Of a stretch of 64,000 nt of DNA, positions 15,221 to 64,000 are shown one piece after another (positions within the stretch are counted from its first letter, which is position 1; each line of letters starts with the position of its first letter). The notes beneath the pieces were generated by a model that was not told the DNA's origin, made no database searches, and was given only the letters and a program-made list of their open reading frames with translations. A program made the translations under genes and the position numbers. The stretch is taken from contig CAYUFS010000023.1 of assembly GCA_964443975.1 (NCBI GenBank), positions 1,953-65,952 of the forward strand. Direction: 5' to 3'. This stretch comes from an uncultured Myxococcales bacterium (GTDB lineage: Bacteria; Myxococcota_A; Polyangia; Fen-1088).

Positions 15221-15224
<4 letters not shown>
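14313..15224 (+). CDS. galU: UTP--glucose-1-phosphate uridylyltransferase
   Basis: VMPVAGLGTRFLPATKAVPKEMLPIVD N-terminal signature and VEKP motif. 304 aa. Confidence 0.9.
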
Positions 15225-17782
<2,558 letters not shown>

Positions 17783-17863: not shown

Positions 17864-18781
17864 ATGGCGACCTTCAAGCGATCCCTTCCCCTGGTGTGGT
17901 GCGCGGCCCTCGCCTGGCTGGCGGCGCCGTCGTGCGGCTCGAGCGGTAGCTCGAGCGGGGGCAGCGGCGGCGTCTCCGCGAGCGGCGGCCGTGTCGGCAC
18001 GGGTGGCGGCACCAGCAGCGGTGGTTCTCCTGCGGGCGTCGGTTCGGGAGGCGCGGGCGTTGGTTCGGGGGGATCGGGATCGGGCGGCCTCGCATCGACG
18101 GGCGGGGTGACGACTCCTCCTGGAAGCGGCGGGGCCTCGGCAACGGGAGGCAACGTCGCGACGGGCGGCGTCGCGCCGACGGGTGGTGTCGGAGGTGGCA
18201 GCCTGGCGGCGGGCGGAGCGGGAGGCGGCAGTGGTGGCAACGCCGCTGGTGGAGGGCCGGCTTCGGGTGGCCGCGGCAGCGGGGCTGGGGGCGGACCCAG
18301 CGCAGCGGGTGGGTCAGCCGGCTTCGCGCTCACCAGCCCCACGCTCACCGAGGGCGGCATGTTTCCCGCCGTGAACACATGCGCCGGCGCTGACACGTCT
18401 CCGGAGCTCGATTGGACGGCGGGCCCCGCGACCGCGAAGGCTTACGCGCTCGTCCTCACCGACATGGCCAACAACCTGGTTCATTGGGTTCTGTGGGACA
18501 TCCCGGTCGCCACGCAGTCTCTCCCCGCCATGCTGCCCAACACACCGATGCTCACCACTCCCGCGGGTGCACGCCAGGTCGCGGTCCAGGGCACCGGCTA
18601 CACAGGCCCTTGCCCGAGTGGAAACGTTCACACCTATCAGTTCGACCTGCACGCGGTCGACGTCGCCATGCTTCCCGGCGTCGCCGCCAACGCGACCTCA
18701 GCGCAGGTGAAGGCGCTGGTGATGATGCACTCGCTCGGGAAGGCGTCCCTCAGCGCGATGTCGAACGCCAAGCGCCCGTGA
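17864..18781 (+). CDS. Lipoprotein with a Gly/Ser-rich linker and a C-terminal PEBP (YbhB/YbcL, Raf-kinase-inhibitor-like) domain
   Basis: Signal peptide with lipobox LAAPSCG, about 130 aa of GGSGG-type linker, then the PEBP signature (ELDW...YALVLTDMANNLVHWVLWDIP...GPCPSGNVHTYQFDLHAVD). Confidence 0.75.
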   Translation: MATFKRSLPLVWCAALAWLAAPSCGSSGSSSGGSGGVSASGGRVGTGGGTSSGGSPAGVGSGGAGVGSGGSGSGGLASTGGVTTPPGSGGASATGGNVATGGVAPTGGVGGGSLAAGGAGGGSGGNAAGGGPASGGRGSGAGGGPSAAGGSAGFALTSPTLTEGGMFPAVNTCAGADTSPELDWTAGPATAKAYALVLTDMANNLVHWVLWDIPVATQSLPAMLPNTPMLTTPAGARQVAVQGTGYTGPCPSGNVHTYQFDLHAVDVAMLPGVAANATSAQVKALVMMHSLGKASLSAMSNAKRP

Positions 18782-18827: not shown

Positions 18828-18899
18828 AGGCGGGTAGCTCAGTGGTAGAGCGGGGTCTTTACACGGCCCGGGTCGCAGGTTCAATCCCTGTCCCGCCTA
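18828..18899 (+). tRNA. tRNA-Val (anticodon TAC)
   Basis: Folded by hand: acceptor AGGCGGG/CCCGCCT, D-arm GCTC-AGTGGTA-GAGC, anticodon stem GGGTC/GGCCC with loop TTTACAC, variable loop GGGTC, T-arm GCAGG-TTCAATC-CCTGT, discriminator A. No encoded CCA. Confidence 0.85.
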
Positions 18900-19016
18900 C
18901 TGGTTAAGTGGTTGATTCCACTATGGATAGGTAACCAGAGATGCTTCCGGTTGCCACGACTTTCGCCATTTCAGTCGCTCCGCTCCGGTGAGGCAGAACG
19001 CGAGCCAGCTTGCCCC

Positions 19017-19259
19017 ATGGTACCCTTTCCCGGCATGCAGGCGCACCGGATGATGATAGAGACGGACGATCAGGGTCGGCTCAAGAATGTGCCCGCGCTG
19101 CCGCCGCACGCGAAGGTCGAAGCGATTTTTCTCGTGCTCGACGAGGCCACGGCGCCCGCTGCGGATCGTCGGCCGCCCGCCTCGCTGGCGAAGCTCGAGA
19201 TCGTCGGCGACATCGTTACTCCTGCGATTGATGAGGCCGACTGGGCAATGACTTCGTGA
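19017..19259 (+). CDS. Putative VapB-type antitoxin
   Basis: Roughly 80-aa ORF whose stop overlaps the PIN-domain gene start (ATGA). No sequence signature was recognised; the call rests on position and size. The ORF track shows a longer form from 18912. Confidence 0.45.
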   Translation: MVPFPGMQAHRMMIETDDQGRLKNVPALPPHAKVEAIFLVLDEATAPAADRRPPASLAKLEIVGDIVTPAIDEADWAMTS

Positions 19260-19645
19260 TCCTTCTTGATTCCCACGCCTGGCTCTGGTGGGTTCAGGGC
19301 TCGATATCGCTGCCGCAGAAGGCAGTTGAGCGCATTCGGACAGCAGATATCGTCGCGGTCGCGTCCGTGTCGTGCCTTGAAGTCGCGTGGCTCGCAAAGA
19401 AGGGTCGGATCGTTCTGCCGGGCACCGTCGAGGAGTTTTTCGAAGAAGCACTCGACCGCGCCGGTCTGCAGTTGCTTCCCCTCACGCCTCAAATAGCCGC
19501 GAGGTCGGCGGTGTTGCCAGACATTCACCGCGATCCGATCGACCGGGTGATCGTCGCGACGGCGATCGAGCACACCGCCAATTTGCTGTCCAGGGACGGG
19601 ATGATCGCGAAGTATCCAGGCGTCGACGTTCGCTGGGACGTGTGA
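19256..19645 (+). CDS. vapC: PIN-domain ribonuclease toxin (VapC family)
   Basis: 129 aa with ILLDSHAWLWW at the N-terminus and acidic residues in DPIDRVIVATAIEHTANLLSRD, consistent with a PIN fold. Confidence 0.8.
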   Translation: MILLDSHAWLWWVQGSISLPQKAVERIRTADIVAVASVSCLEVAWLAKKGRIVLPGTVEEFFEEALDRAGLQLLPLTPQIAARSAVLPDIHRDPIDRVIVATAIEHTANLLSRDGMIAKYPGVDVRWDV

Positions 19646-19988
19646 CCAAGGCGGCACGACGCATGATCTGAGAGTCCGAGGGGCTCCTGCGCCACCAGTG
19701 GGCTCCGAGGAAACCTGCGAGGAAAACCTCGCCAGGCTCCGAGGAAAGGGTCACGCGGTTAGGCGTCCAGGTGTGTTGCGAGGGGGTTGGCGGGGAGGCG
19801 ACCCGACGCGGTGGGGCGCCACCAATCGGATTCCTGCTACCTGGTCGCGCGGGTGGCGGGGTGACACGCGCGGGGCGTCGCCGAATGAATCGTGATCGGG
19901 CACCTGACGATGTCGTGGGGGTACGGTGCCACCGGCTGCGGCCGACCGATACTATGCTGGAGGTGATGACGACCAATAGCGGCGGACC

Positions 19989-20387
19989 GTGCAAGTAGCT
20001 AGCGCAACCGCCGCAGTTTGGCGCATAGCCGTGGCTTGCACTGTGGTCAGTGGAATCGTTGGGTGCCGGCATTCCGATCGACCGCGCATTGCGATTCAGG
20101 TTGATGACACGGGTGGCGGAACGCCAATCTTCAGTTTCCGATCTCGGTCGGGTCAAGCGCCGCTCGTCTACGTTGTAGGAATCGAAGCCTCCCAGGGTCG
20201 CCAAGTGTGCACTCTGTCTGTGCCATCGATGTCGTCCGCCAGTAGTGGACCTTCTCGGTGGCGTTACGGAACTATGATCGCAGGTTATGACTTGGATGGA
20301 TGTTCGCCACTGCCGCCCGGTGAGTATTTGGTGTACGTCGATGCCACCGGCGGTAAAGGGTTTACGAGATTTGTTATCGATGAGTGA
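19989..20387 (+). CDS. Hypothetical small secreted or lipoprotein-like protein
   Basis: 132-aa ORF with a hydrophobic N-terminus ending in a Cys (AVACTVVSGIVGC) in a local region of about 58 % GC. No homology was recognised. Confidence 0.4.
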   Translation: MQVASATAAVWRIAVACTVVSGIVGCRHSDRPRIAIQVDDTGGGTPIFSFRSRSGQAPLVYVVGIEASQGRQVCTLSVPSMSSASSGPSRWRYGTMIAGYDLDGCSPLPPGEYLVYVDATGGKGFTRFVIDE

Positions 20388-20441
20388 CAACCTCCAGCGC
20401 CGCCATTCGGCGATCAACGACGTCATCGATGCTCTCGGCGT

Positions 20442-21017
20442 TCAGCCCTCCAAGTCTTCCCCGCGTACCGATCGCCAGAGCTCTTCGAGGCCCAGGTCGG
20501 CCACCCACCGTTCGATGTATGCGATATCCAGATCGTCTCCCCGGAGCTGGAGGATGCCCGAAACGTCTCGCAGCTGGAGCTGGCTGCCGCCCCCTTGCTT
20601 CGCCCACTCCAGTTTCGAGAGCAGCGTGTCTTCGGGCGAGGCGACGAAGACGCGCGCGCCCAGCAGATCGGCTTCGACGCGGCGGCGCATCTCCTCCACG
20701 GAAAATGGCCGCGCCTTCCGCACGATCAGGTCGGCCTTCCAGGCGGTCGCCATGTCGATGACATTGAACAGCCCACGACGACGAAGCGCATCGAACGCTG
20801 CCTCGGCATCGACGTAGTAGTCCTCGGGCGGGAGATCGGAGAGAAAGCGGCGAAGCGATTCGGCCTGTGGATCGATGACGAGATCGAGGTCCTGGCTGCT
20901 GCGTGGCACGCCATGGAACGAGCTGGCGAAGGATCCGACCACCATGCTCGGCACGCCAGCAGCGGCCAGCTTGGCCGTCAAGCGCGACAGGAAGGCGCCA
21001 GCGCCCCCATCGGTCAT
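20442..21017 (-). CDS. Minimal nucleotidyltransferase-fold protein (Pol-beta superfamily)
   Basis: hG[GS]-x(9-13)-DhD pattern in VGSFASSFHGVPRSSQDLDLVID. The start at the internal ATG 21017 forms an ATGA overlap with the upstream gene's stop. The ORF-track form extends to 21044. Confidence 0.5.
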   Translation of the reverse strand: MTDGGAGAFLSRLTAKLAAAGVPSMVVGSFASSFHGVPRSSQDLDLVIDPQAESLRRFLSDLPPEDYYVDAEAAFDALRRRGLFNVIDMATAWKADLIVRKARPFSVEEMRRRVEADLLGARVFVASPEDTLLSKLEWAKQGGGSQLQLRDVSGILQLRGDDLDIAYIERWVADLGLEELWRSVRGEDLEG

Positions 21018-21373
21018 GGCGCCAGCAGCGAATGCGCCGGCCATGCGCGACGAAACAGCTCGTCGCCTAGCCAGAGTCGGCGAAGCGCGCGCTCGACCTC
21101 TTCATCGGTGTAGTCGGGATGGCGTGCACGAATCCCTCCGCGCGCGAGCTCCCTCGTGTCGGCCGACAACCTCGCCGCTATGTTCGCTCGACCCGCTGAC
21201 CCCAAGCGCCGATAGGCCTGCAGCTGGGCCTCGTGGCTCTCCGATGTCGTGTCTCGCGACCGCACTTCACAGGAATATACCTCGGCTGCGCAGGTCAATG
21301 GGATCTCGAACCGCTGCGGCAAGTGCGCGGGCCGTGCGCCCGGCGTGCCACGGCCGATCTCTTCGGCTACCAT
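21014..21373 (-). CDS. Hypothetical 120-aa protein coupled to the nucleotidyltransferase
   Basis: The internal Met at 21373 gives MVAEEIGRGTPG...HPDYTDEEVERALRRLWLGDELF. Only this downstream part has protein-like composition; the 5' 100 codons of ORF 21014..21673 are Arg/Gly-rich. Confidence 0.4.
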   Translation of the reverse strand: MVAEEIGRGTPGARPAHLPQRFEIPLTCAAEVYSCEVRSRDTTSESHEAQLQAYRRLGSAGRANIAARLSADTRELARGGIRARHPDYTDEEVERALRRLWLGDELFRRAWPAHSLLAP

Positions 21374-21379
21374 CGAGAG

Positions 21380-22360
21380 ATGCGCAGGCACGTGGACTGG
21401 CGTTGGGTCGTGGGTGGGTTGAGCGCCGCGATGACTGCTGCGGGGGCGCCCTCGGCGGCAGAAGCGTGCGGCGGCCCACCGCCGTATATGCCGATCGGGC
21501 TGCCGCGACCGGCCGCGACCGCTGTTTCCACCGCGACGTCGATCGTCGTGATCTGGCAGGGCCAGCCCGCCGGTCTCGCCTTGCAGGCCGCGGGGCAGGA
21601 CGTGCCACTCGCCGAGGCCTTCGGTCTCGGTCTGGGCGCCGAGGGATTCAACCGAGCGCTTTCGTTCTGGCAAGTCCGTCCTGCGACGGCCAGCGGGCTG
21701 CTAGCACCGAGCGCGGAGCACGTGCTGACGGCGACGTACCAGGGCAGCACTGTCGAGGTCACGCGCTTCACGACCGCCGCCGGCTACGACAAGGCCGAGG
21801 GCGTCGCGCCGATCGTGCGCGCCCTTCAGCTCTGGCGTGTCCGCTACCCCCTGTCGGACATCGGCTCGGGGAACTGCGTGTTCGCCGAGTATCACGGCTT
21901 CCTGACCGTCGACTACGATCCCGCCACGGTCCCGAACACCCCGCCGGCATCGGTGGTGCAAACGTTCCGCCTGGCCCCGAAGACCGGCGGCGGTGCGCAG
22001 GTGTTCAACTACGTCGGCGACGCGCCGTTCGCCGGTCTGGCGCCGAGCGGCGACCACCCGCTGCCGCTCGGTCTCTGGCAGCCCGAGCTCGATCCGACGC
22101 TCGAGTATTGCCTGACCATCTCGGCCTCCGGCGACGGCGACATTGCGCGTCTGCGGCTCGAAAGCCAGCCGGTTTGCGCGACGGTGGCGCAGCTCTCGGC
22201 GTCGGGCGCGCCACCCTCGCCCGTGATCAGCGGCGCTGGCGGCGCAGGCGGAAGCGGCGGTTGTAGCGTGGCCGGAGATGCCGGTGCCGTTCCGGCGCTG
22301 GTCGTGGCATCGCTCGCGTTCGTGCGCGCGCTCCGGCGTCGGCCCCGATCAGCGTCGTGA
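21380..22360 (+). CDS. Secreted protein with a MYXO-CTERM-type C-terminal sorting signal
   Basis: The start at the internal Met gives signal peptide MRRHVDWRWVVGGLSAAMTAAGAPSAAEA. The C-terminus GAGGAGGSGGCSVAGDAGAVPALVVASLAFVRALRRRPRSAS has a Gly-rich stretch, a Cys, a TM helix and a basic tail. Confidence 0.6.
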   Translation: MRRHVDWRWVVGGLSAAMTAAGAPSAAEACGGPPPYMPIGLPRPAATAVSTATSIVVIWQGQPAGLALQAAGQDVPLAEAFGLGLGAEGFNRALSFWQVRPATASGLLAPSAEHVLTATYQGSTVEVTRFTTAAGYDKAEGVAPIVRALQLWRVRYPLSDIGSGNCVFAEYHGFLTVDYDPATVPNTPPASVVQTFRLAPKTGGGAQVFNYVGDAPFAGLAPSGDHPLPLGLWQPELDPTLEYCLTISASGDGDIARLRLESQPVCATVAQLSASGAPPSPVISGAGGAGGSGGCSVAGDAGAVPALVVASLAFVRALRRRPRSAS

Positions 22361-22373
22361 CGGAGCTGCCGCT

Positions 22374-22961
22374 GTGATTCTTGGCTCGACGCGCGAGGGC
22401 CGCTTCGGCGACAAGCCCGCCCACTGGATCCTCGGCGAGGCGAGCCGGCAGCCCGGAGTCGTGGCCGAGCTGCTCGACCTGCGCGACTTCCCGCTGCCGT
22501 TCTTCGACCGGCCCCAGTCACCCATCCGCGAGGGCGGCGTCTACCGCGACCCCGCCGTCACCCGCTGGGCCGCGCAGATCGCCCCGGCCGACGCCTACAT
22601 CGTCGTCGGGCCCGAGTACAACCACGGCTACTCGGCGGTGCTCAAGAACGCGCTCGATCACCTCTATCCCGAGTGGGTGCGCAAGCCGGTCGGGTTCGTG
22701 AGCTACGGCAACGCCGGCGGGGCGCGCGCCGTCGAGCAGCTTCGCCTCGTCGCCGTCGAGCTGCAGATGTGGCCGATCAGGACGGCCCTCCACCTCCCCC
22801 TCGAGGTCTACCTCGCGGCGATGAAGGAGCCCGTGCCGCCCAACCCGCAGGTCTTCGAGCCGCTCAAGAAGGGCATCGGCGGCGACCGCGTCGCGCAATT
22901 CTTCGGCGATCTGCTCTGGGCGGCGCGCGCGCTCAAGGCCGCGCGTCACGCCGCGACGTGA
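22374..22961 (+). CDS. NAD(P)H-dependent FMN reductase family protein
   Basis: VILGSTREGRFGDKPAHWI...VVGPEYNHGYSAVLKNALDHL...VGFVSYGNAGG, a flavodoxin-like FMN-reductase pattern. GTG start chosen to avoid an 80-nt overlap with the upstream gene. Confidence 0.75.
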   Translation: MILGSTREGRFGDKPAHWILGEASRQPGVVAELLDLRDFPLPFFDRPQSPIREGGVYRDPAVTRWAAQIAPADAYIVVGPEYNHGYSAVLKNALDHLYPEWVRKPVGFVSYGNAGGARAVEQLRLVAVELQMWPIRTALHLPLEVYLAAMKEPVPPNPQVFEPLKKGIGGDRVAQFFGDLLWAARALKAARHAAT

Positions 22962-22988: not shown

Positions 22989-24098
22989 TCAGCAGAGCAT
23001 GAGGCGGGCGAGCAGGCGCTCGAGGCGCAGCGCCAGCCAGGTGTCGGAGCTCGTGTGCGCGTGGTCCATCGCCGCGAACAGGTGCGTCTGCTCAAGATCG
23101 AGGCGCTCGGGGTGGCGCTCGAGCAGGCGCACGAAGTGGCCCACCGCACGACGCTGGTCGAAGCGGGTCCGCGCGACCACGGCGTGCTTGACCGTCGCGT
23201 GCAGGGCGAAGCGTCCTTCGAGGGGCTCCTGGACGAGATGCCACCGCCGCAAGAGGGCCAGCGCCCGCGAAGCGGCTACGGTGGCCTTGCCGCTGCCGCC
23301 GGTGCTCGCGCCCGCCAGTGATGCCAGCGAGGCGACGTCGATGTGGTCGCCTTGCATGTGGGCGAGGACCGCCAGCAACCGGCGCCCCGTCGCCCCGAGG
23401 CGGGGCCAGACCCAGGCCACGAGGAGTCGAAGCTCCGGGAGATCGTCCTCGTGGGCGATCACCGAGACCTCACCCACGCCGCTCTTCACCAGCCAACCAC
23501 CGAGCGCTGTGACGGACACGGCGCCGCTGCCGACGAGCGCGTTGCTGATGTCGAGGGCGAGCGGGTTCCAGCGCAGGAGCGCCGTCAGCGCCGCGACGGC
23601 CGGGAAGGGACTGCGGCCGCTCGTCACGAGCGGGGGGACCACCGGGAACACGGACACGCCCGCGAGCAGGCACCGGCGCGCCGTCAGCACCCAGGTGACC
23701 GGCAGTCCCGCCAGCGCGTTCAGAAACCGGGCCATGGCCCGATCGTCCTCGTGGTTGTCGAGCACGATGAGCGTGCGCCCGCGTCGTTCGAGGCCCCGGC
23801 GCAGCTCGGTGACACGGCGGTCGCGCTCCTGGAACCCGCCGAGCGGGATCTTCATGCGAATCGCCAGCATGTCGAGCAACGTCAGCGCGTCCCACGCGCC
23901 GACGCGGAACCACTCGATGCCGCCGGGGTGCTCGGCGCGCACGCGATGCCCCAGGGCAGCCGCCAGGGTCGACTTGCCACCGCCGCCCGGACCGACGAGC
24001 GCCAGCCGCGGCGTCAGGCCGGCGCGACACACTGCCACCAGCGTCCTCAGCTCCGCCGTGCGGCCACGAAACGGTTCGGGTCTAGGAGGGAACGCCAC
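22989..24098 (-). CDS. P-loop NTPase of the NB-ARC/STAND-like type with no recognisable effector domain
   Basis: Walker A LALVGPGGGGKSTLAAALG and Walker B TLIVLDNHED in 369 aa. It is the last gene of an ECF-sigma operon. Confidence 0.6.
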   Translation of the reverse strand: MAFPPRPEPFRGRTAELRTLVAVCRAGLTPRLALVGPGGGGKSTLAAALGHRVRAEHPGGIEWFRVGAWDALTLLDMLAIRMKIPLGGFQERDRRVTELRRGLERRGRTLIVLDNHEDDRAMARFLNALAGLPVTWVLTARRCLLAGVSVFPVVPPLVTSGRSPFPAVAALTALLRWNPLALDISNALVGSGAVSVTALGGWLVKSGVGEVSVIAHEDDLPELRLLVAWVWPRLGATGRRLLAVLAHMQGDHIDVASLASLAGASTGGSGKATVAASRALALLRRWHLVQEPLEGRFALHATVKHAVVARTRFDQRRAVGHFVRLLERHPERLDLEQTHLFAAMDHAHTSSDTWLALRLERLLARLMLC

Positions 24099-34713: not shown

Positions 34714-35664
34714 TCACCGAAAACGCCCCAGGCTGACGCCGGCCGACAGCTGGAGCTCGAAGCGGGGCAAAGAGGCCTCGAACCCCGTGCCGCTGGCTAT
34801 CACCGCCTGGCGGCCCGGCCAGGTCCAGGCGTCGAACGCCACAAACGGGGCGAGGCGCCCTTGCGGCCACGCCAACCTGCCCCCGAGCCCGATGCCCACG
34901 TCGACACCTGTCTGGTCGTAGTTCGTGCCGAAACCATCGCCCTGCAACCGAATCACGGCCGCCTCGACGTGCGCCCGGGCGTCGAAGGCGAGCCCTCCGA
35001 GCCAGACCCGCTCCTTCAATCCGGCGTCGAGCGCCGCGCGCGACCAGCGCGCGCGCCCTGGCGCCGGGCCCAGGGCAACGGCGTGCGACCCTTCCACGAG
35101 CAGGGCCGCTCGCGCGCCCAAGCTCGACCGGGCGCGCCCGACCTGCACGTCGACGACCGCGCCGGCGGCGACATCCCCAGCTTGCGCGCCGAGCACGGCC
35201 GCGCCCACTTCCCACGGGCGGTCGGACACGGGGGGAATGGGAGGCGGCTGCGGGGACGCGGTGATCGTCGCCGCCACGGACGAGCGTTCCGGTGCGCTGC
35301 GGGTACGCCGGGGACTGGGCGACGACGGCAACTCCGGCCCGAGGTCGGCGCGCATTTCGCCCTCCCAGGTCGTGATGATCACCGCGGCCGCCGCCGCCAG
35401 ATCCGCGCAGGAGCCCGAGCGCACCAGAGTTCGCTGCGCCAGCAACTCGCCCGTCTGGTTCCGCAGGGAGATGGCGAGGCCCCCATCGCCCAGCACAACG
35501 TCCGCGCTGAGCCGGGGCCCCAGCGACGCCCGTGGCGGGGAGTCGCCCGTCCCGGCGAGTCGGTCGAGCTCGAACGACACCTCGGCGCGCGACGGGCAGT
35601 CCGTGTGGACCTGGAGGTCCACGCCGGCAGCGAGCCACAAGGACACGACGAGGAGCCCTGACAT
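34714..35664 (-). CDS. Hypothetical secreted protein
   Basis: N-terminal signal-like MSGLLVVSLWLAAGVDLQ. No known motif. It lies upstream of the ECF sigma on the same strand. Confidence 0.4.
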   Translation of the reverse strand: MSGLLVVSLWLAAGVDLQVHTDCPSRAEVSFELDRLAGTGDSPPRASLGPRLSADVVLGDGGLAISLRNQTGELLAQRTLVRSGSCADLAAAAAVIITTWEGEMRADLGPELPSSPSPRRTRSAPERSSVAATITASPQPPPIPPVSDRPWEVGAAVLGAQAGDVAAGAVVDVQVGRARSSLGARAALLVEGSHAVALGPAPGRARWSRAALDAGLKERVWLGGLAFDARAHVEAAVIRLQGDGFGTNYDQTGVDVGIGLGGRLAWPQGRLAPFVAFDAWTWPGRQAVIASGTGFEASLPRFELQLSAGVSLGRFR

Positions 35665-57561: not shown

Positions 57562-58000
57562 GACGCGCGCGGAGGCGCTGCCGCGGTTTCTCGAAGCCGC
57601 CATGTCGAGTCTCTCACATGAATCGCCCGCGCATCTGAGCGCCATGCAGCAGACGCTGCGCGACCTGCGCGCGGTTGTCCGCGTCGATGGCGCACCTCCC
57701 TTCAGCGTCTGCGTCGGCGCTGGACACGCATGGGTCGACCGGCGTCTCGCTCAAGGCGACGTTGAAGTTACGATGGAGGAATCGGCACTTACTGACCTCC
57801 TCCTAGGTCGCCTCACCATGGAGGAAGGCGTCCTCAACGACCGGGTCTTCGTTCGGGGCTCGCTGGATACCCTCCTGAAATTCTTGGAGGGCTGGGCTGA
57901 ATGGCTTCATGGCGCCTTGCGCTGCCCTTCGATGCCGGCTGTCCACCGGCAACTCCTGGCCATGGAAGTTGGCCGCCCAGTGAACCACCGTCCGGAATAG
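57554..58000 (+). CDS. SCP2 sterol-carrier-like domain protein
   Basis: A GTG start overlaps the upstream stop. TMEESALTDLLLGRLTMEEGVLNDRVFVRGSLDTLLKFLEGW resembles the SCP2 lipid-binding fold pattern. Confidence 0.5.
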   Translation: MAETRAEALPRFLEAAMSSLSHESPAHLSAMQQTLRDLRAVVRVDGAPPFSVCVGAGHAWVDRRLAQGDVEVTMEESALTDLLLGRLTMEEGVLNDRVFVRGSLDTLLKFLEGWAEWLHGALRCPSMPAVHRQLLAMEVGRPVNHRPE

Positions 58001-58017
58001 AGAACAGGGAGGCCATC

Positions 58018-61000
58018 ATGTTCAATCAGGGAAAAAAGTCGCAGAGGCTGAGCTTTGGACCGCGGGCGAGGGACTTTCTTCCTCCGGAACCGTCTGACCC
58101 GACAAGCGTGGCTGCGGATTCAGCCGCCGGGCCAGCTCGCCCGGGGGCCAAGCAGAACGCAGGCGCGAGCGCCGTTGTTACCGCCCAAGCTGCCGCACGA
58201 CAGGAATCGAAGCTGCTCGAGAAGCTGCGGGCGGACGGGCGCAGTCGCCGGCCGGAGCCGAGGCTGCCCGGCAAACACGCGCTGAACCCGCCGATCGTGA
58301 CTATCTTTGGCGCGGGAGTGGCGGGGCTGACGGCGGCTCATGAGTTGGTCGATCGTGGATTCCTCGTCCAGGTAGTGGAAGCCAGCGAAGATTTGTCTTG
58401 CCCGGGTCGCCCGATTGTCGGCGGCCTGGCCGCCAATCAGCCGGCCAGGGTCAGAGCCAACATCGAGGACCTTCACCGAGACATCATGATCGCTGCCCTG
58501 ACACCCCAAGTTGACGGCGAGCCGCAGGCGCTCAGCTCCACGAGGCGAGTCGCGGCGTGGCTCTTGAATTTGTTCGCGTTCAATCGTAGCCGATGGATTC
58601 AGACCGAGGAGCCCCAGAGAATCAATGGGTGCATCTTTTCCTCTCCAACCGATCCCGCTGCAAAGATATACAAGGAGCATCTTCTGCGCGACCTGGCAAA
58701 TGCCCGCCACCACTACAGAAACCGCTGGTTGTGGGACCTCATTGTCCGACCAGCAATGTTGGGCGCTATCAAGCCAAGAACGCCGGACGTCGACGTCAAC
58801 GCCGACTGCAAGAAGCTCTACGACAAGCTCATGGGGGCTGATGTCGCGGTGACGTCCATCTCAAAGGAGCTCCTTACCCATTTCGAGGGAACGGACGTCA
58901 CGACCGAGTTGCCGAGCTCCACGCAGATCCACTCCTGCCCGTCCCTGGTCACCCTGGGCATGGAACGGGAGTTCCTTTCGTTTCGCTTGATCCCTTTCGC
59001 CCGCCAAGGCTTCGAAGACGCCCCTAGGCTGGCGCGCGCCCTCTACCAGGAGTGGCTCCACGTGTTCGAGAGTCACGATATCTTCAAGTACTCTTGCGTC
59101 TCTTGCCCTCCGCCGGAAATGGAACAGGCTCTCAATGAAGGTACCAAGCACACGAGGTCGACACGAGAAAACCTAGTTCCGCTTGATGGTGACGGCGTTC
59201 CAATCGCGGTCGAAGTCGCAGAGGCACCGCCGGAATTCCCATTTCAAGCGTGGCTTCAGCTCGAGATTGTCGAGCAACGTCTGCCCGGAGAGCACGGGTA
59301 TCGCTTTTTCCCGTCATTTTATCGGCATCTCGACGACACCATGGCCCGCATCCCCCTTTATCAAAATGGCCAGACCACTGGACGAACGGTTCTCGACAAT
59401 CTCAAGCCCACGGTCTTCCAGGGCATCGGGCTATCCGACGAGGATCGTAAGACGATCGTGTCGCTCAGGCAGAGTAGCCGCCGACCCAATCTGGAAGCGC
59501 AGGATCCGAACCAAAGGGACGACAGATATCCAAACTACGACGACCCGATGCTTTCGCCGTGCCGTGACGAAGCGAGCGGCGCGGTCGTAGAACTGCACCG
59601 CGAGAAGCCTCGCAGTATCGAGGCGTTCCGGGACTGCACGGATCGATTCGTCAAACGTCTGGGCGGGACGAGGCGAGATGCGGTGATCCTACTGTCCAAG
59701 CTGATTCGTTTCATGACATCGAGTCCAGAGCGGCGGAGGGCCAAGTACGAGGACCTGACCTGGGCAGAGTTCCTGGACGTGTCGAAGTTTTCAAAACCGA
59801 TGCAAAAGCAGATTCAATCGGCTGCTCAGGCGCTGTTGGCATTTTCGGCTTCAGAGGCGGACGCCAGAACCTACGGAAACATAGCGGTCCAAATGCTGCT
59901 CGACGAGTTGCGGGATGGCACACGGGTCGATCGAACCCTCAACGGACCAACGAGCGATGCGTGGCTGGAGCCGTGGCGAGAGCACCTTGAGCGCCAAGGC
60001 GTCAGATTCTTTCTCGGAAGGCTCAGCGCGCTGGAGCTCAAGAACGATGAGATCATTCCAAGAATCGACTTTAGTTCAGCGCAGGATCGGGTGTCCCAGG
60101 ACGCCCACGAGATTTTGACTGCGTCATTGGCCAACGAAGGGTTGCGGCCGGATTTTTATGTGTTGGCTCTGAATATCGAGCAGAGCCAGCGGTTGATTGA
60201 GCAGATTGTGATCGATCCGGGAGCCGACGCGGCCGCGCCTGTCACCGCTGGAGTGGTCGTCGAAAAGCATAAAGATCTGGCGCCGGATTTCGCGACCTTC
60301 CTCGACTTCGGGAAGGAGGTGCAAGATCGAAAGGCGATGAAGACCATGACGGGCGTGCAGTATTTTTTTGATGCCAAGACCGACGTTGGAAGAGGGCACA
60401 TGTACTTCCCATTCTCGAGTTGGGGTTTGTCATCCATTTCCCAGTCTCAATTTTGGTCCCGGCGCGGGAGCTTCTCCGATGGATACTTCGGGCTCCTTTC
60501 AGTGGACGTATGCACCACCGGGATAGGACCTGATGGCCCTCCCGAGCCAGGATCGTTCGCCGATGCTCTCAGACCCGGGGAGCAGAAGGATGGGTACGAC
60601 GTACAGAGGCGTGTTCTCGAAACAGGCCAGCAGACCCTAAAGCAAATTGCGGACAGGATCGGGGGAGGACGGCAACTCGGAGATCCCAGATGTCTTCACA
60701 TCGATCGGAATCTGTCTCGGCCGGCGAAGGAGAAGACAGAGTTCCTCGCGTCCATGGCGGGGATGAAGAAGCCCCGCGCTGGTCTGAGACCGGTTGGCCC
60801 CGATGGGCATGTGTGTGTGGGTGTCAAAGAGATCGAATACGATCTGAACTTCAAAAGATGGGTGTTATGCGGGACGTTCATGGCGACCCGCACCCGCATG
60901 ACGACTATGGAGTCAGCCAATGAATCGGGCCGACATGCCGTCGCCGCAATTCTGAGACGCCTGTCGATGGACGACGCGTCTGACAGCGTCAAGGCAGAAT

Positions 61001-61443
61001 ACCTCGACCACGGCTACCAGATCGAGAACCTGTCAAACAGGACCTACAATTGGGCGTCGAAGTTTAGAACGTACGAGGCGCCGCCCACTTGGAATCCTGA
61101 AGACGAGGAGTTGGAGGATCTGGACTTCTTCCGCCGGGTGGACCGGCGCTTGATGAACCTGAACCTTCCTCACCTCATGGATATCGTTGACTTTGATGAC
61201 AAGGTCGAGCATGCGGTTCAGGCGATCGAGCTGTACGGGAGAGAGAAGCCGCTGTCGAACCTCTTTGGGGCGTCAATGGCGGGGCTCGACGCCGGATTGG
61301 TCAAGGAGTTGGGGGATGGGTATGCGAAGCTCGAAACGGCTCGGTGGGACGAGGCGACGCGAGCGGCGGCCGGGCCACCATTCGGCGATATGGTGCAGAT
61401 AAACGAACGGTGGAAGAAGGTTCTTGGGCTCTTCAGGCTTTAG
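58018..61443 (+). CDS. Giant (1141 aa) flavin amine-oxidase-fold protein with about 900 aa of inserted sequence
   Basis: AGGGAGG Shine-Dalgarno before the ATG at 58018. Beta-alpha-beta FAD fold PIVTIFGAGVAGLTAAHELVDRGFLVQVVEAS about 110 aa in. C-terminal amine-oxidase motif VLCGTFMATRTRMTTMESANESGRHAVAAIL. The local GC content is markedly lower. Confidence 0.7.
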   Translation: MFNQGKKSQRLSFGPRARDFLPPEPSDPTSVAADSAAGPARPGAKQNAGASAVVTAQAAARQESKLLEKLRADGRSRRPEPRLPGKHALNPPIVTIFGAGVAGLTAAHELVDRGFLVQVVEASEDLSCPGRPIVGGLAANQPARVRANIEDLHRDIMIAALTPQVDGEPQALSSTRRVAAWLLNLFAFNRSRWIQTEEPQRINGCIFSSPTDPAAKIYKEHLLRDLANARHHYRNRWLWDLIVRPAMLGAIKPRTPDVDVNADCKKLYDKLMGADVAVTSISKELLTHFEGTDVTTELPSSTQIHSCPSLVTLGMEREFLSFRLIPFARQGFEDAPRLARALYQEWLHVFESHDIFKYSCVSCPPPEMEQALNEGTKHTRSTRENLVPLDGDGVPIAVEVAEAPPEFPFQAWLQLEIVEQRLPGEHGYRFFPSFYRHLDDTMARIPLYQNGQTTGRTVLDNLKPTVFQGIGLSDEDRKTIVSLRQSSRRPNLEAQDPNQRDDRYPNYDDPMLSPCRDEASGAVVELHREKPRSIEAFRDCTDRFVKRLGGTRRDAVILLSKLIRFMTSSPERRRAKYEDLTWAEFLDVSKFSKPMQKQIQSAAQALLAFSASEADARTYGNIAVQMLLDELRDGTRVDRTLNGPTSDAWLEPWREHLERQGVRFFLGRLSALELKNDEIIPRIDFSSAQDRVSQDAHEILTASLANEGLRPDFYVLALNIEQSQRLIEQIVIDPGADAAAPVTAGVVVEKHKDLAPDFATFLDFGKEVQDRKAMKTMTGVQYFFDAKTDVGRGHMYFPFSSWGLSSISQSQFWSRRGSFSDGYFGLLSVDVCTTGIGPDGPPEPGSFADALRPGEQKDGYDVQRRVLETGQQTLKQIADRIGGGRQLGDPRCLHIDRNLSRPAKEKTEFLASMAGMKKPRAGLRPVGPDGHVCVGVKEIEYDLNFKRWVLCGTFMATRTRMTTMESANESGRHAVAAILRRLSMDDASDSVKAEYLDHGYQIENLSNRTYNWASKFRTYEAPPTWNPEDEELEDLDFFRRVDRRLMNLNLPHLMDIVDFDDKVEHAVQAIELYGREKPLSNLFGASMAGLDAGLVKELGDGYAKLETARWDEATRAAAGPPFGDMVQINERWKKVLGLFRL

Positions 61444-61455
61444 AATCCGCTGCCG

Positions 61456-64000
61456 CTATGGCGCGCGCGGAGACACCCTGAGCTGGTCAGAAATGAGCCG
61501 TTCGACGCGCGCGAGATCGTGGCGCGCACCAATTCTACGAAAGAGCTCTGCCGCCTCTCCGAGGTAGCGCGCGCGGTCAGGAGGGCTGATCGCGTGTTCT
61601 CCCAGGGCGGCCAGCGCCATCCCTTCATCATGCGCCATCGAGAGACTGCGGGCGCGCTTCAGACTCGCTTGAAAATGACGCCTGGCGCGCTTCACGTTTC
61701 CGTCCACGTTGGCGGCCTCGATGCCCTGCCAGAGGGAAGCCCGTGGCGAAGCGATCACCATCACCCGGCTCACCGCCCTTATTCGCTTCACGGCATGTCG
61801 TACGAGCTGTTCTAGGTCGTGCTTGTCTTGGCGGTTCGTCGACAGGGTCCACAAACGGAAGTGGACCTCGGCAACGGCGCCGTAAGCGAAGATGTTGTAG
61901 AAGACCGGAGCCGTCCCCTTGCTATCCCATGCCGAGCAGCGTCGCGCGGCGTCTTGGGCCGCCTGAGCGTCGCCGGACCTCAAATAAGCGAGAGCCAGAG
62001 CGCCAAGCGCATAGATCCACTCGGCACGGCCGAGGGCGTTGCGGCAAAGTCGTTCTCCTTCTCTCGCGTCCGTGACGGCAGCGGTCGCTTCGCCGCCCAT
62101 CAAATGTAGCTCCGCCCGCTTGACCACGGCCCAGCATTTGCTCTGGGGATCTGCCCGTTCCGTCGTTCCGAGGAGCCGTTCATTGACATCGTGGGCCTCG
62201 CGGAATCGTCCTGCAAGGAATAGGGCGGTGCCGAGTTGTGCAGTGGATTCCTCCCACCTCCGACTAAAGCCCATCCGCAATGACATGAGTCCGACCTGCT
62301 GGAGGGTTGATTGAGTCTGGTCCCAGCGACCCGCCTGGAGATGGACGAGCGCCACGTTCATTAGGACCCACGTCTCCGCGAGCTCGTCTCCGCTCTCCTT
62401 GGCCACCTGCGTGGCCCGTTGGCAGTAGGATTGGGCAATACCATCGAGGTTGGCGAGCGAACACATCGCCGCGAACGTGGCATACCCGAGTGCGCGCTCT
62501 GCTGAGGCGCCGCCCGCCTGTTCTGCGAGATCCATGTTTGTCAGGCCGGCGAGGGTCACCGCCAGCATGTTGCCGGTGACAAAGTAGTGCACGACCAACA
62601 GCCGTTCGTAGGCACGGGCCGCTTCCAGCAGCAATTCGCGAGCAACACCTTCCGGTTGCAGAAGGGGCAGTGATGACGGCAGCGAACGCCGAATGAGCTC
62701 TCGGGCGAGTGAAAGGACGCAGCGAGCGGCCATTCCCGCCCGGGAGCGAGGCCAGCGTTTCCCCGCGATCCCAGCGGCCTCGACCAGACTCGACGAAGCC
62801 AGGTCCATGTTCCCCAGAGCCAGGGCATTGAGACCGAGGAGTCGTTCTCTTCGGGCGCGGGCGAGCACCGAGGCCTTCGCAGAAACCAACATCTCCAGCG
62901 ACTTGGCTCTCTCCAGCAAGCCGATCGCCTCGGCATTCGCGTGCATCGCATGGGCGGCCTCACCGGCCTTGTCCAGGTACTCCAGGGCTTTTGCGAAGTC
63001 CTTTGCTTTCTCGAAGTGATGGGCCAGGGTGGCGTAGACGCTGTCCAAGGTCCCTGCCTCCGCGTGCCGGCGCTCTAGCAGGACCGCCGCTGCCGCATGG
63101 AGCCTCGCCTGTCGCTCGGCGGATAGCCCCTCGTAGGCGATCTCCCGGAGCTTGTCGTGTACGAACCTCACCGATCCCGGCAGTGAGGGCTCGAGGATCT
63201 GCCGCACCAGGAGGTTTCGCAGCGTCTGCCCGAACGCTGTCTCATCGGCGACTCCGACGGCGAGGGCCAGCGCGGACAACACCTCGATCTGCACTTCGCG
63301 GCCCAGGACCGCCGCGACCTCGGTCAGGCGTCGCGAGGTATCGAGGAGGCCGTCGAGTCGGCGCGTCACCAGCGCCTGCAAGGTGTGCGGCAGGCCGAGG
63401 CCATCGAGCGCCATTCCCCCGCCGGACTGTTGCCATCTCCCGCGGTCGTCCCGGAAAAGCAGGCCAGCGTCGACCGCGGCCCTCAGGTATTCAGCGACAA
63501 AGAACGGGTTTCCGGACGACTCCTCGGTCAGGAAAGCCGCCAGCGTGTCCGGAACTTGCCTCTGCCCGAGCATGTCCGCCGACATGGCGCCGATCGTCGC
63601 GGCGTCGAGCCTGTCCAGGCGAAAGTGGGTTGAATGCGAAAGCCCGGCCAGTCGGTCGAGGTCGGGGGTCGACTCCTCGGCGCGATAGGTCGCGACGACG
63701 AGGACCGGGTTCTCTCCGTAGTAGCGTTCCGTCAACGAGGACAGGAAGGCCAGGGTGAGATCGTCCGCCCACTGCAGGTCATCCAGCACCAACAGGGTCG
63801 GTCTGTCCGAGGCGAAGCTCGCCAGGGTTTCGGCCATTGCATCGATCAGCCGCCGTCGGGAGGCTTCGCCGGGTATCTCGGCCGGCTCTGGATAGGATTC
63901 GACCCCCGGCAGGTTTCGTAGCGTGGGCTCGCATGCGGCCAAGACCTTGGCGCGCTCACCGAGCATCCGTCGCGTGAGCGTCTCTCCCCCCGCGACGCAG
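61456..64000 (-). CDS. STAND-type P-loop NTPase with C-terminal TPR-like repeats (partial; its 5' end lies beyond the window)
   Basis: The frame is open to the window edge upstream of the first Met. LLVLDDLQWADD (Walker B / hhhhDD), a GNPFFV helical domain, then about 500 aa of helical repeats. It converges on the flavoprotein gene. Confidence 0.7.
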   Translation of the reverse strand, partial: CVAGGETLTRRMLGERAKVLAACEPTLRNLPGVESYPEPAEIPGEASRRRLIDAMAETLASFASDRPTLLVLDDLQWADDLTLAFLSSLTERYYGENPVLVVATYRAEESTPDLDRLAGLSHSTHFRLDRLDAATIGAMSADMLGQRQVPDTLAAFLTEESSGNPFFVAEYLRAAVDAGLLFRDDRGRWQQSGGGMALDGLGLPHTLQALVTRRLDGLLDTSRRLTEVAAVLGREVQIEVLSALALAVGVADETAFGQTLRNLLVRQILEPSLPGSVRFVHDKLREIAYEGLSAERQARLHAAAAVLLERRHAEAGTLDSVYATLAHHFEKAKDFAKALEYLDKAGEAAHAMHANAEAIGLLERAKSLEMLVSAKASVLARARRERLLGLNALALGNMDLASSSLVEAAGIAGKRWPRSRAGMAARCVLSLARELIRRSLPSSLPLLQPEGVARELLLEAARAYERLLVVHYFVTGNMLAVTLAGLTNMDLAEQAGGASAERALGYATFAAMCSLANLDGIAQSYCQRATQVAKESGDELAETWVLMNVALVHLQAGRWDQTQSTLQQVGLMSLRMGFSRRWEESTAQLGTALFLAGRFREAHDVNERLLGTTERADPQSKCWAVVKRAELHLMGGEATAAVTDAREGERLCRNALGRAEWIYALGALALAYLRSGDAQAAQDAARRCSAWDSKGTAPVFYNIFAYGAVAEVHFRLWTLSTNRQDKHDLEQLVRHAVKRIRAVSRVMVIASPRASLWQGIEAANVDGNVKRARRHFQASLKRARSLSMAHDEGMALAALGEHAISPPDRARYLGEAAELFRRIGARHDLARVERLISDQLRVSPRAP

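Follow-up and report, generated by a model that had tools for sequence, protein, structure and literature searches.

What is the DNA that directly follows the tRNA-Val gene of an uncultured Myxococcales (Polyangia) soil bacterium, how far does it reach, and how did it come to lie there? We addressed these questions in a 64-kb contig stretch from this organism (referred to here as the window; mean GC content, 68.6%). An earlier note on the window had described everything between the tRNA and an FMN reductase gene as a single integrated element of 3.5 kb, possibly a remnant that has lost its integrase, with a VapB-VapC pair, a nucleotidyltransferase gene pair, and a MYXO-CTERM protein gene among its contents. 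We found instead that VapBC with its spacer, the nucleotidyltransferase cassette, and the MYXO-CTERM gene behave as separate modules, each with its own distribution. We read positions 18901 to 21290 (about 2.4 kb) as a patch in which two toxin-antitoxin modules have accreted at a tRNA-Val gene that is a hot spot of recombination, and we give this reading a probability of about 0.55. The tRNA, the patch, and the gene that adjoins it are arranged as follows (aa, amino acids; nt, nucleotides; GC3, GC content at third codon positions).

18828-18900, + strand: tRNA-Val, anticodon TAC (ARAGORN; Rfam RF00005, 63.1 bits)
18901-19016: spacer between the tRNA and the VapB-like gene, 56% GC; also occurs in relative L096
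19017-19259, + strand: VapB-like antitoxin candidate, 80 aa, start codon uncertain (assigned by position)
19256-19645, + strand: putative VapC toxin with a PIN domain, 129 aa (Pfam PF01850)
19646-20425: low-GC stretch without coding signal, about 800 bp (flat GC3 in every frame)
20426-21290, - strand: predicted MenAT1-like toxin-antitoxin cassette, 865 bp; recurs with identical end points in relatives L101 and L105
20442-21017, - strand: putative MenT1-like nucleotidyltransferase toxin, 191 aa (profile and fold)
21014-21265, - strand: antitoxin-like partner, 83 aa, GTG start (conservation in relatives; sub-threshold match to PF18993)
21274-21279, - strand: TATATT, a -10-like box kept upstream of the partner start across contexts
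21291-21348: window-specific junction between the cassette and the MYXO-CTERM module; no homology to L101 or L105
21380-22360, + strand: MYXO-CTERM surface protein, 326 aa (TIGR03901, TIGR03382)

Gene arrangements at tRNA-Val

The tRNA-Val gene lies where the earlier note had placed it, and comparison with metagenomic relatives bore out the claim that the DNA on its 3′ side is accessory and varies between relatives. We found four arrangements at this tRNA. In the window, tRNA-Val is followed by VapBC, the low-GC stretch, the cassette, and the MYXO-CTERM gene. In L103/L104, whose PriA protein is 86% identical to that of the window at the amino acid level, PriA is followed by a different 293-aa gene on the other strand, tRNA-Val, 40 nt, and the cassette. 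In L105, the order is tRNA-Val, 118 nt, the cassette, and then unrelated genes. The tRNA-Val region is identical to that of the window over 81 nt in L103/L104 (100%) and 94% identical in L105, and the homology of L103 and L105 to the window ends 1 to 6 nt past the tRNA 3′ end. VapBC and the 0.8-kb spacer, which are present in the window, are absent from both of these arrangements, which keep the tRNA and the cassette. The spacer between the tRNA and VapB is carried by another relative, L096, which has a PEBP-family lipoprotein gene matching that of the window at 95%.

The fourth arrangement was seen in L101 and L102, which are short Logan assembly contigs from one study and two different sequencing runs. 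Neither contains an intact tRNA. They contain 31 nt that duplicate the tRNA-Val 3′ end, together with a related spacer (alignment score of 51, versus a null of 15.6 ± 2.2), followed by the MYXO-CTERM gene (85% nucleotide identity), 11 nt, and the cassette (91%), and the first ~50 nt of the window spacer at 18901-19016 resemble the sequence after their tRNA fragment. The last 26 bases of L101 are identical to the first 26 of L102, which then re-enters the tRNA fragment. Joined in this way, the two contigs give a unit of about 2.15 kb that is either circular or tandemly repeated. It may have been excised as a circle, it may be a tandem array, or the assembler may have merged two copies of the cassette. 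Because the tRNA-Val gene occurs in four arrangements, one of which has a duplicated tRNA 3′ end, we regard it as a recombination hot spot.

If the L101/L102 arrangement were an artefact of short-read de Bruijn assembly, there would be no evidence of a tRNA-derived repeat anywhere. The contigs are short and come from a single study, their circularity rests on the 26-nt overlap, and the MYXO-CTERM open reading frame (ORF) loses its stop codon at the cassette junction, all of which could be expected of an assembly error. However, the junction between the tRNA fragment and the MYXO-CTERM gene and that between the MYXO-CTERM gene and the cassette are found in both contigs and both runs at 99.9% identity, and the tRNA fragment is embedded in unique sequence, away from the contig ends. 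We consider an artefact very improbable.

The arrangement in the window itself recurs in other assemblies. The exact VapC protein was found on 20 metagenome contigs; the gene order of the window was present in all 10 of the 10 places shown, and these 10 loci were 99.3-100% identical to the window, with zero indels across the studied region. The genes of the window match those of uncultured Myxococcota, and their close homologues carry Polyangia or Myxococcales labels from metagenome-assembled genomes (MAGs). Six Logan contigs from different samples (L004, L005, and L007 to L010) all start at window position 18880, inside the tRNA; this shared start, 30 nt before 18910, fits a branching of the assembly graph between coexisting variants whose sequences diverge immediately past the tRNA.

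Synteny at the tRNA-Val gene across related genomes, a comparison that the earlier note had proposed, was non-discriminating at the species level, where the loci share nothing past PriA, whereas the metagenomic relatives described above do show variability. PriA identified 80 genome loci, and among the twelve closest, which we inspected (PriA identity of 43-75%), the NTP-transferase gene upstream of PriA was shared by five and tRNA-Val by none. Nothing downstream of PriA was common to the nine closest genome representatives (48-75%) or to three distant Myxococcota loci (43-46%), and tblastn of the window proteins against the 80 loci found no gene from downstream of PriA. A metagenome scan with the PEBP-family protein yielded one locus amid an overwhelming background of low-complexity patterns. 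A 19-nt match between the L101 spacer and window positions 35451-35469 was judged to be due to chance.

The nucleotidyltransferase cassette as a discrete unit

The nucleotidyltransferase gene and its partner behave as a mobile unit with defined ends. By blastn, L101 and L105 match this cassette at window positions 20426-21290 (865-866 nt, 91-93% identity), with a sharp loss of homology on either side. We also found the two genes, at 79-90% protein identity, in unrelated chromosomal contexts (L091 to L095), always as a pair, and toxin relatives of 30-42% identity sit on cyanobacterial and Herpetosiphon plasmids. In the loci examined, the partner gene is always upstream of the toxin gene.

The sole non-coding element conserved across all cassette contexts examined is the TATATT box (TATACT in L095), which is located 8 nt upstream of the partner start in seven of seven aligned loci (the window, L091, L093, L094, L095, L101, and L105, representing six distinct contexts, since L093 equals L094). 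The position of this -10-like box suggests that the cassette mRNA may be leaderless.

Two possible origins of the cassette were considered and rejected. Against a phage origin, IMG/VR contains no copy of the tRNA 3′ end, and the toxin is found on a single IMG/VR contig and is unmatched in the phage collection. An integron cassette would need an attC site of about 57 nt or more at its 3′ end, but the shared 3′ flank is 16 nt long (20426-20441), and no inverted repeat was seen in it.

Relationship of the cassette to MenAT1

The earlier note had described an ATGA-coupled pair made up of a 120-aa protein and a minimal nucleotidyltransferase. The coupling stands, with the partner stop codon overlapping the toxin start in ATGA (21014-21017), but the partner is an 83-aa rather than a 120-aa protein: conservation in relatives starts at the motif (V/M)R(P/S)RDT and covers only the last ~80 residues. 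For the toxin, homologues begin at the start of the 191-aa version; an upstream ATG at 21044 would give a 200-aa product.

The toxin scores 18.3-18.5 bits against the Pfam AbiEii model (PF08843), which is below the cut-off of 22.5, and among 70 members of its family, weak matches were obtained to DUF6036 in 28 and to AbiEii in 18. A 70-sequence profile of the family matches MenT1 of Mycobacterium tuberculosis (PDB 8an4) with an E value of 2.7e-9. The AlphaFold model of the toxin has a pLDDT of 95.6, and its top five Foldseek matches in the PDB are all MenT1 or MenAT1 structures, aligned over their full length (183-199 columns) with TM scores of 0.55-0.73 and 20-24% sequence identity. Residues conserved in the family include the PRx(T/S)xDxD motif, whose S/T41, D43, and D45 align to T39, D41, and D43 of MenT1. 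In addition, K135 and D151 are nearly invariant and, lying at almost the same positions as K137 and D152 of MenT1, are candidate equivalents of these residues. The partner matches the Rv0078B-related antitoxin family (PF18993) with an E value of 7e-5 and 23.2 bits, below the cut-off of 27.1, and 7 of 15 members of the partner family also match this model below threshold (best E value, 3.1e-5). When the partner profile was compared with the PDB, it matched de novo designed and unrelated repeat proteins only, and no MenA1 chain.

On this basis, we assign the gene pair at 20442-21265 as a putative MenAT1-like toxin-antitoxin cassette, with its activity predicted by homology. It shares with MenAT1 of M. 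tuberculosis (Rv0078B-Rv0078A, of the MenT/AbiEii DUF1814 superfamily) the size of the toxin (191 versus 196 aa), the two-lobed fold, the alignable N-terminal catalytic motif, a short, overlapping antitoxin gene upstream of the toxin gene, and a partner that weakly matches the Rv0078B family. It differs from MenAT1 in the low identity of the toxin, in the scores of toxin and partner below the AbiEii and Rv0078B cut-offs, and in having Ser (S41) instead of Thr at the phosphoacceptor position of the window copy; the window toxin also belongs to a large family of its own, some members of which are fused to the partner. MenT1 extends the acceptor ends of tRNAs with cytidines, and it is blocked by MenA1, which binds to it asymmetrically (PMC10435456) and also induces auto-phosphorylation of MenT1 T39 (PMC11375011). 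By analogy, the 83-aa partner would neutralize the window toxin by binding to it and would induce auto-phosphorylation of an active-site Ser/Thr, which is S41 here.

The fused members of the toxin family (found among P0241-P0384) are single proteins of 240-300 aa that appear as natural partner-toxin fusions, with their N-terminal ~80 residues homologous to the antitoxin-like partner. The family as a whole has 969 matches in 90% clusters, the best 120 of which are 70-97% identical to the window toxin, and 6339 representatives at 50% clustering. Thus, the MenT1-like minimal nucleotidyltransferase toxins, studied to date in M. tuberculosis, are joined by a very large family of relatives scoring below the Pfam thresholds, whose close members are abundant in soil metagenomes and in Polyangia-labelled MAGs, and a gene pair that is labelled just "hypothetical protein" in its sources gains a predicted MenAT1-like identity.

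The VapBC module and the low-GC stretch

In the VapB-VapC pair reported by the earlier note, the toxin and the gene overlap were confirmed, while the antitoxin is assigned by its position alone. VapC matches the Pfam PIN domain (PF01850) with an E value of 8e-15 and 55.9 bits (cut-off, 23.6), and the acidic residues D5, E42, D93/D96, and D114 are present by inspection. The stop codon of the 80-aa ORF upstream (GC3 of 0.75) overlaps the VapC start by 4 nt (GTGA, 19256-19259). This ORF has no Pfam, NCBIfam, or PDB sequence match and falls in no antitoxin family, and we treat it as a VapB candidate. The module resembles type II VapBC systems in having a PIN-domain toxin gene after an overlapping small ORF and in keeping the conserved acidic residues; it differs from them in that its putative VapB matches neither antitoxin families nor solved structures. 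As a PIN-domain toxin, VapC would act as an RNase and would be restrained by the small protein encoded directly upstream. Both this module and the MenAT1-like cassette would serve as addiction or defence genes, which would hold the patch in place.

Two ORFs have been proposed in the stretch between VapC and the cassette, and neither is supported. The lipoprotein-like ORF of the earlier note (19989-20387, + strand; 132 aa) did not hold up as a gene, with a GC3 of 0.53, no frame signal, no family match, and zero homologues among 5.8 billion protein clusters. An antisense ORF of 314 aa (19482-20426, - strand) is called by automatic gene finders on every contig of the organism; it overlaps VapC by 164 nt, has a flat GC3 (0.62) and no family match, and is probably spurious. 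We treated 19646-20425 as non-coding. This stretch matches no Rfam family and is absent from L103 and L105. The annotation of the region is tidied accordingly, with both the automatic antisense call and the hand-read ORF set aside.

Base composition and the MYXO-CTERM gene

The earlier note had reported a fall in GC content to 58-60% past the tRNA. A dip is present, but it is modest: in 400-nt intervals, GC content is 57-66% across 18.6-21.2 kb and 72-78% upstream, and values of 57-59% are reached only at 20.0-20.6 kb, with 61.9% for 19646-20441. The patch as a whole (18901-21290) has a GC content of 63.2% (z = -1.5), and 7.6% of same-sized intervals of the contig are equally low. The tetranucleotide deviation of the region, which the earlier note had proposed to compute, is unremarkable (z = 1.1). 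GC3 is 0.72-0.79 in the four toxin-antitoxin genes compared to 0.84 ± 0.05 in 31 putative host genes. The MYXO-CTERM gene is host-like, with a GC content of 71.7% and a GC3 of 0.83, and the FMN reductase gene has a GC3 of 0.94. Because both of these genes are host-like in composition, we place the end of the islet near 21.3 kb and not at 22.36 kb.

The identification of the MYXO-CTERM protein by the earlier note was upheld by its tail, although its composition is not that of an islet. When isolated, the tail passes TIGR03901 (20.3 bits versus 20) and TIGR03382 (16.1 versus 15.85), and a scan of the whole 326-aa protein gave no match to either model at an E value of ≤0.01. The protein has a signal peptide with a conserved Cys30 and a tail consisting of a Cys motif, a hydrophobic transmembrane helix, and an Arg-rich end, and Cys295 is invariant in 65 homologues. 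This C terminus is shared with other MYXO-CTERM surface proteins, which are sorted as substrates of myxosortase (PMC11980579). The window protein differs from these in its passenger, which belongs to no named family and is modelled (pLDDT of 86.8) as two generic Ig/FN3-like beta-sandwich domains with FN3/Ig-type structural matches. We found 115 homologues of the protein, few of which have a taxon label, and those labels are mostly Polyangia or Myxococcales. The contexts of four homologues (L097 to L100) were set aside for the purpose of drawing the island boundary, as they are unrelated and say nothing about it. In L101, the MYXO-CTERM ORF (172-1398) lacks its normal stop and continues for ~80 extra codons antisense into the toxin gene, giving a product of 408 aa, and this read-through probably disables the C-terminal sorting signal.

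These properties bear on whether the whole of 18.9-22.36 kb, including the MYXO-CTERM gene, is one integrated element from which the integrase was lost. L101/L102 lend this idea some support, as they carry the MYXO-CTERM gene and the cassette together between copies of the tRNA-Val 3′ fragment or on a circle, and homologues of the MYXO-CTERM protein with 62-74% identity are found in unrelated contexts, so this gene also moves. However, the host-like GC content and GC3 of the MYXO-CTERM gene are at odds with a single element, and in L105 the cassette is located at the tRNA without an adjoining MYXO-CTERM gene. The MYXO-CTERM gene and the cassette also come in a different order in L101 than in the window, and each forms a separate, sharply bounded block of homology, which for the MYXO-CTERM gene spans 21349-22347. 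Furthermore, VapBC and its spacer are missing from L103 and L105, and the window lacks a distal repeat. We consider a single element unlikely, and we conclude that the MYXO-CTERM gene is probably host flank rather than part of the islet.

Proposed integration at the tRNA 3′ end

The patch directly abuts the 3′ end of tRNA-Val. Genomic islets associated with tRNA genes include integrase-less remnants, such as the cis-mobilizable elements (CIMEs), in which the att sites are retained and the recombinase is missing. The patch resembles such islets in its location at the tRNA 3′ end, its lower GC content, its toxin-antitoxin cargo, its variability between relatives, and the duplicated tRNA 3′ end carried by one relative. 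It differs from them in having neither an integrase nor a distal repeat, in its very small size of 2.4 kb, and in a variability that extends to the gene on the 5′ side of the tRNA.

Several findings weigh against accretion of the patch at a tRNA-Val hot spot. The direct repeat of the tRNA 3′ end for which the earlier note had proposed a search is missing, as no second copy (22 nt, up to 3 mismatches) is present in all 64 kb and the only copy is the one in L101/L102; generic repeat finding on 18.7-24.5 kb and a Smith-Waterman scan of 19-30 kb also gave chance-level matches only. As the earlier note had reported, no integrase is visible, with no integrase or recombinase match (Pfam, NCBIfam, or PADLOC) among the ORFs scanned at 17.9-24.1 kb. 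The scan was limited to ORFs of 50 aa or more; it also covered seven other selected ORFs elsewhere in the window, none of which matched a recombinase family. Because the window has neither the repeat nor an integrase, we infer site-specific integration from L101/L102 alone. In addition, the PEBP-family gene (17864-18781) is swapped in L103 for an unrelated gene on the opposite strand (966-1847), and because the gene 5′ of the tRNA differs there, variability is not confined to the 3′ side. The compositional deviation of the patch is modest (z of about -1.5), and toxin-antitoxin genes often deviate in composition anyhow. The antitoxin families are matched below threshold by the 83-aa partner and not at all by the VapB candidate. 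Finally, the MYXO-CTERM gene of L101/L102 lies inside a repeated or circular unit, contrary to what would be expected of a plain host flank.

Some of these findings would fit a history without site-specific integration, in which the region is a vertically inherited, fast-evolving stretch where selfish toxin-antitoxin cassettes are gained and lost through recombination, whether illegitimate or homologous, with the tRNA as a mere bystander. The lack of an att repeat and an integrase in the window, the modest compositional signal, and the different gene upstream of the tRNA in L103 are in line with such a history, as is the presence of the cassette at loci without a nearby tRNA. Against it, the 31-nt match to the tRNA-Val 3′ end, with its spacer, that lies beside the same genes in L101/L102 is highly significant, and the cassette adjoins tRNA-Val in three independent arrangements, which is more than random insertion predicts. 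We regard a history of this kind as unlikely.

For accretion at the tRNA-Val hot spot, we propose the following sequence of events. In this simplest history, tRNA-Val would at first have been followed by the MYXO-CTERM gene and the FMN reductase gene, the two genes that most likely represent the original host flank. Toxin-antitoxin DNA would then have inserted at the tRNA 3′ end, probably in a site-specific recombination event that targeted the tRNA, and later losses would have removed the distal repeat and any integrase. The window-specific junction contains CGCAGG-TCAAT, which we considered as a possible remnant of the tRNA 3′ end and rejected, as Smith-Waterman alignment on 21.28-21.37 kb did not score above shuffled controls (P of about 0.2).

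The components of this region belong to known kinds and form no new system; the region is an ordinary patch of accessory DNA with a host-type MYXO-CTERM gene alongside, and current understanding is unchallenged by the locus. One less ordinary lead is a possible 2.15-kb integrase-less element in L101/L102. A specific version of this lead, which we think quite unlikely, is that the cassette and the MYXO-CTERM gene together make up a miniature, integrase-less mobile element of ~2.15 kb that has an attP-like copy of the tRNA-Val 3′ end, occurs as the circle or tandem seen in L101/L102, and would be moved in trans by a tRNA-Val-specific integrase encoded elsewhere, with the window representing an anchored, decayed derivative of such satellites stacked at one tRNA. 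If integration at this tRNA-Val is shown to be active, the gene could be used as a landing site, or to track how strains of these uncultured bacteria vary.

Flanking genes and other parts of the window

The genes on either side of the region are as follows; the FMN reductase gene is present, as the earlier note had stated, and starts at 22374.

to 15224, + strand: NTP-transferase
15221-17782, + strand: PriA
17864-18781, + strand: PEBP-family lipoprotein
22374-22961, + strand: NADPH-dependent FMN reductase, right-hand host flank (Pfam PF03358, E value of 3.6e-37; GC3 of 0.94)
22989-24098, - strand: STAND-type NTPase, 369 aa (weak nSTAND1, NB-ARC, and AAA_16 matches)

An Rfam scan for hidden RNA genes matched tRNA-Val alone. 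Promoter and terminator scans gave chance-level output, and a consensus promoter scan was empty.

The P-loop NTPase gene directly past the FMN reductase gene (22989-24098, - strand) has, besides its weak STAND-type matches, a faint PADLOC match to mad8, and it may be a defence-related gene adjoining the toxin-antitoxin patch.

A second, mild GC dip occurs at 500-1500 (61.8%, z of -1.6), near a 185-aa ORF (280-837, - strand) that lacks a Pfam match and has a low GC3 (0.72). Within the window, composition deviates most strongly at 57900-62000, where the GC content is 56-60% (z to -2.9) and the tetranucleotide z is about 4. This anomaly coincides with an ORF of 1180 aa (57901-61443, + strand), whose sole match is a weak, N-terminal one to an NAD/FAD-binding domain, and which is adjoined by a TPR/AAA_16 ATPase gene (61456-63966, - strand).

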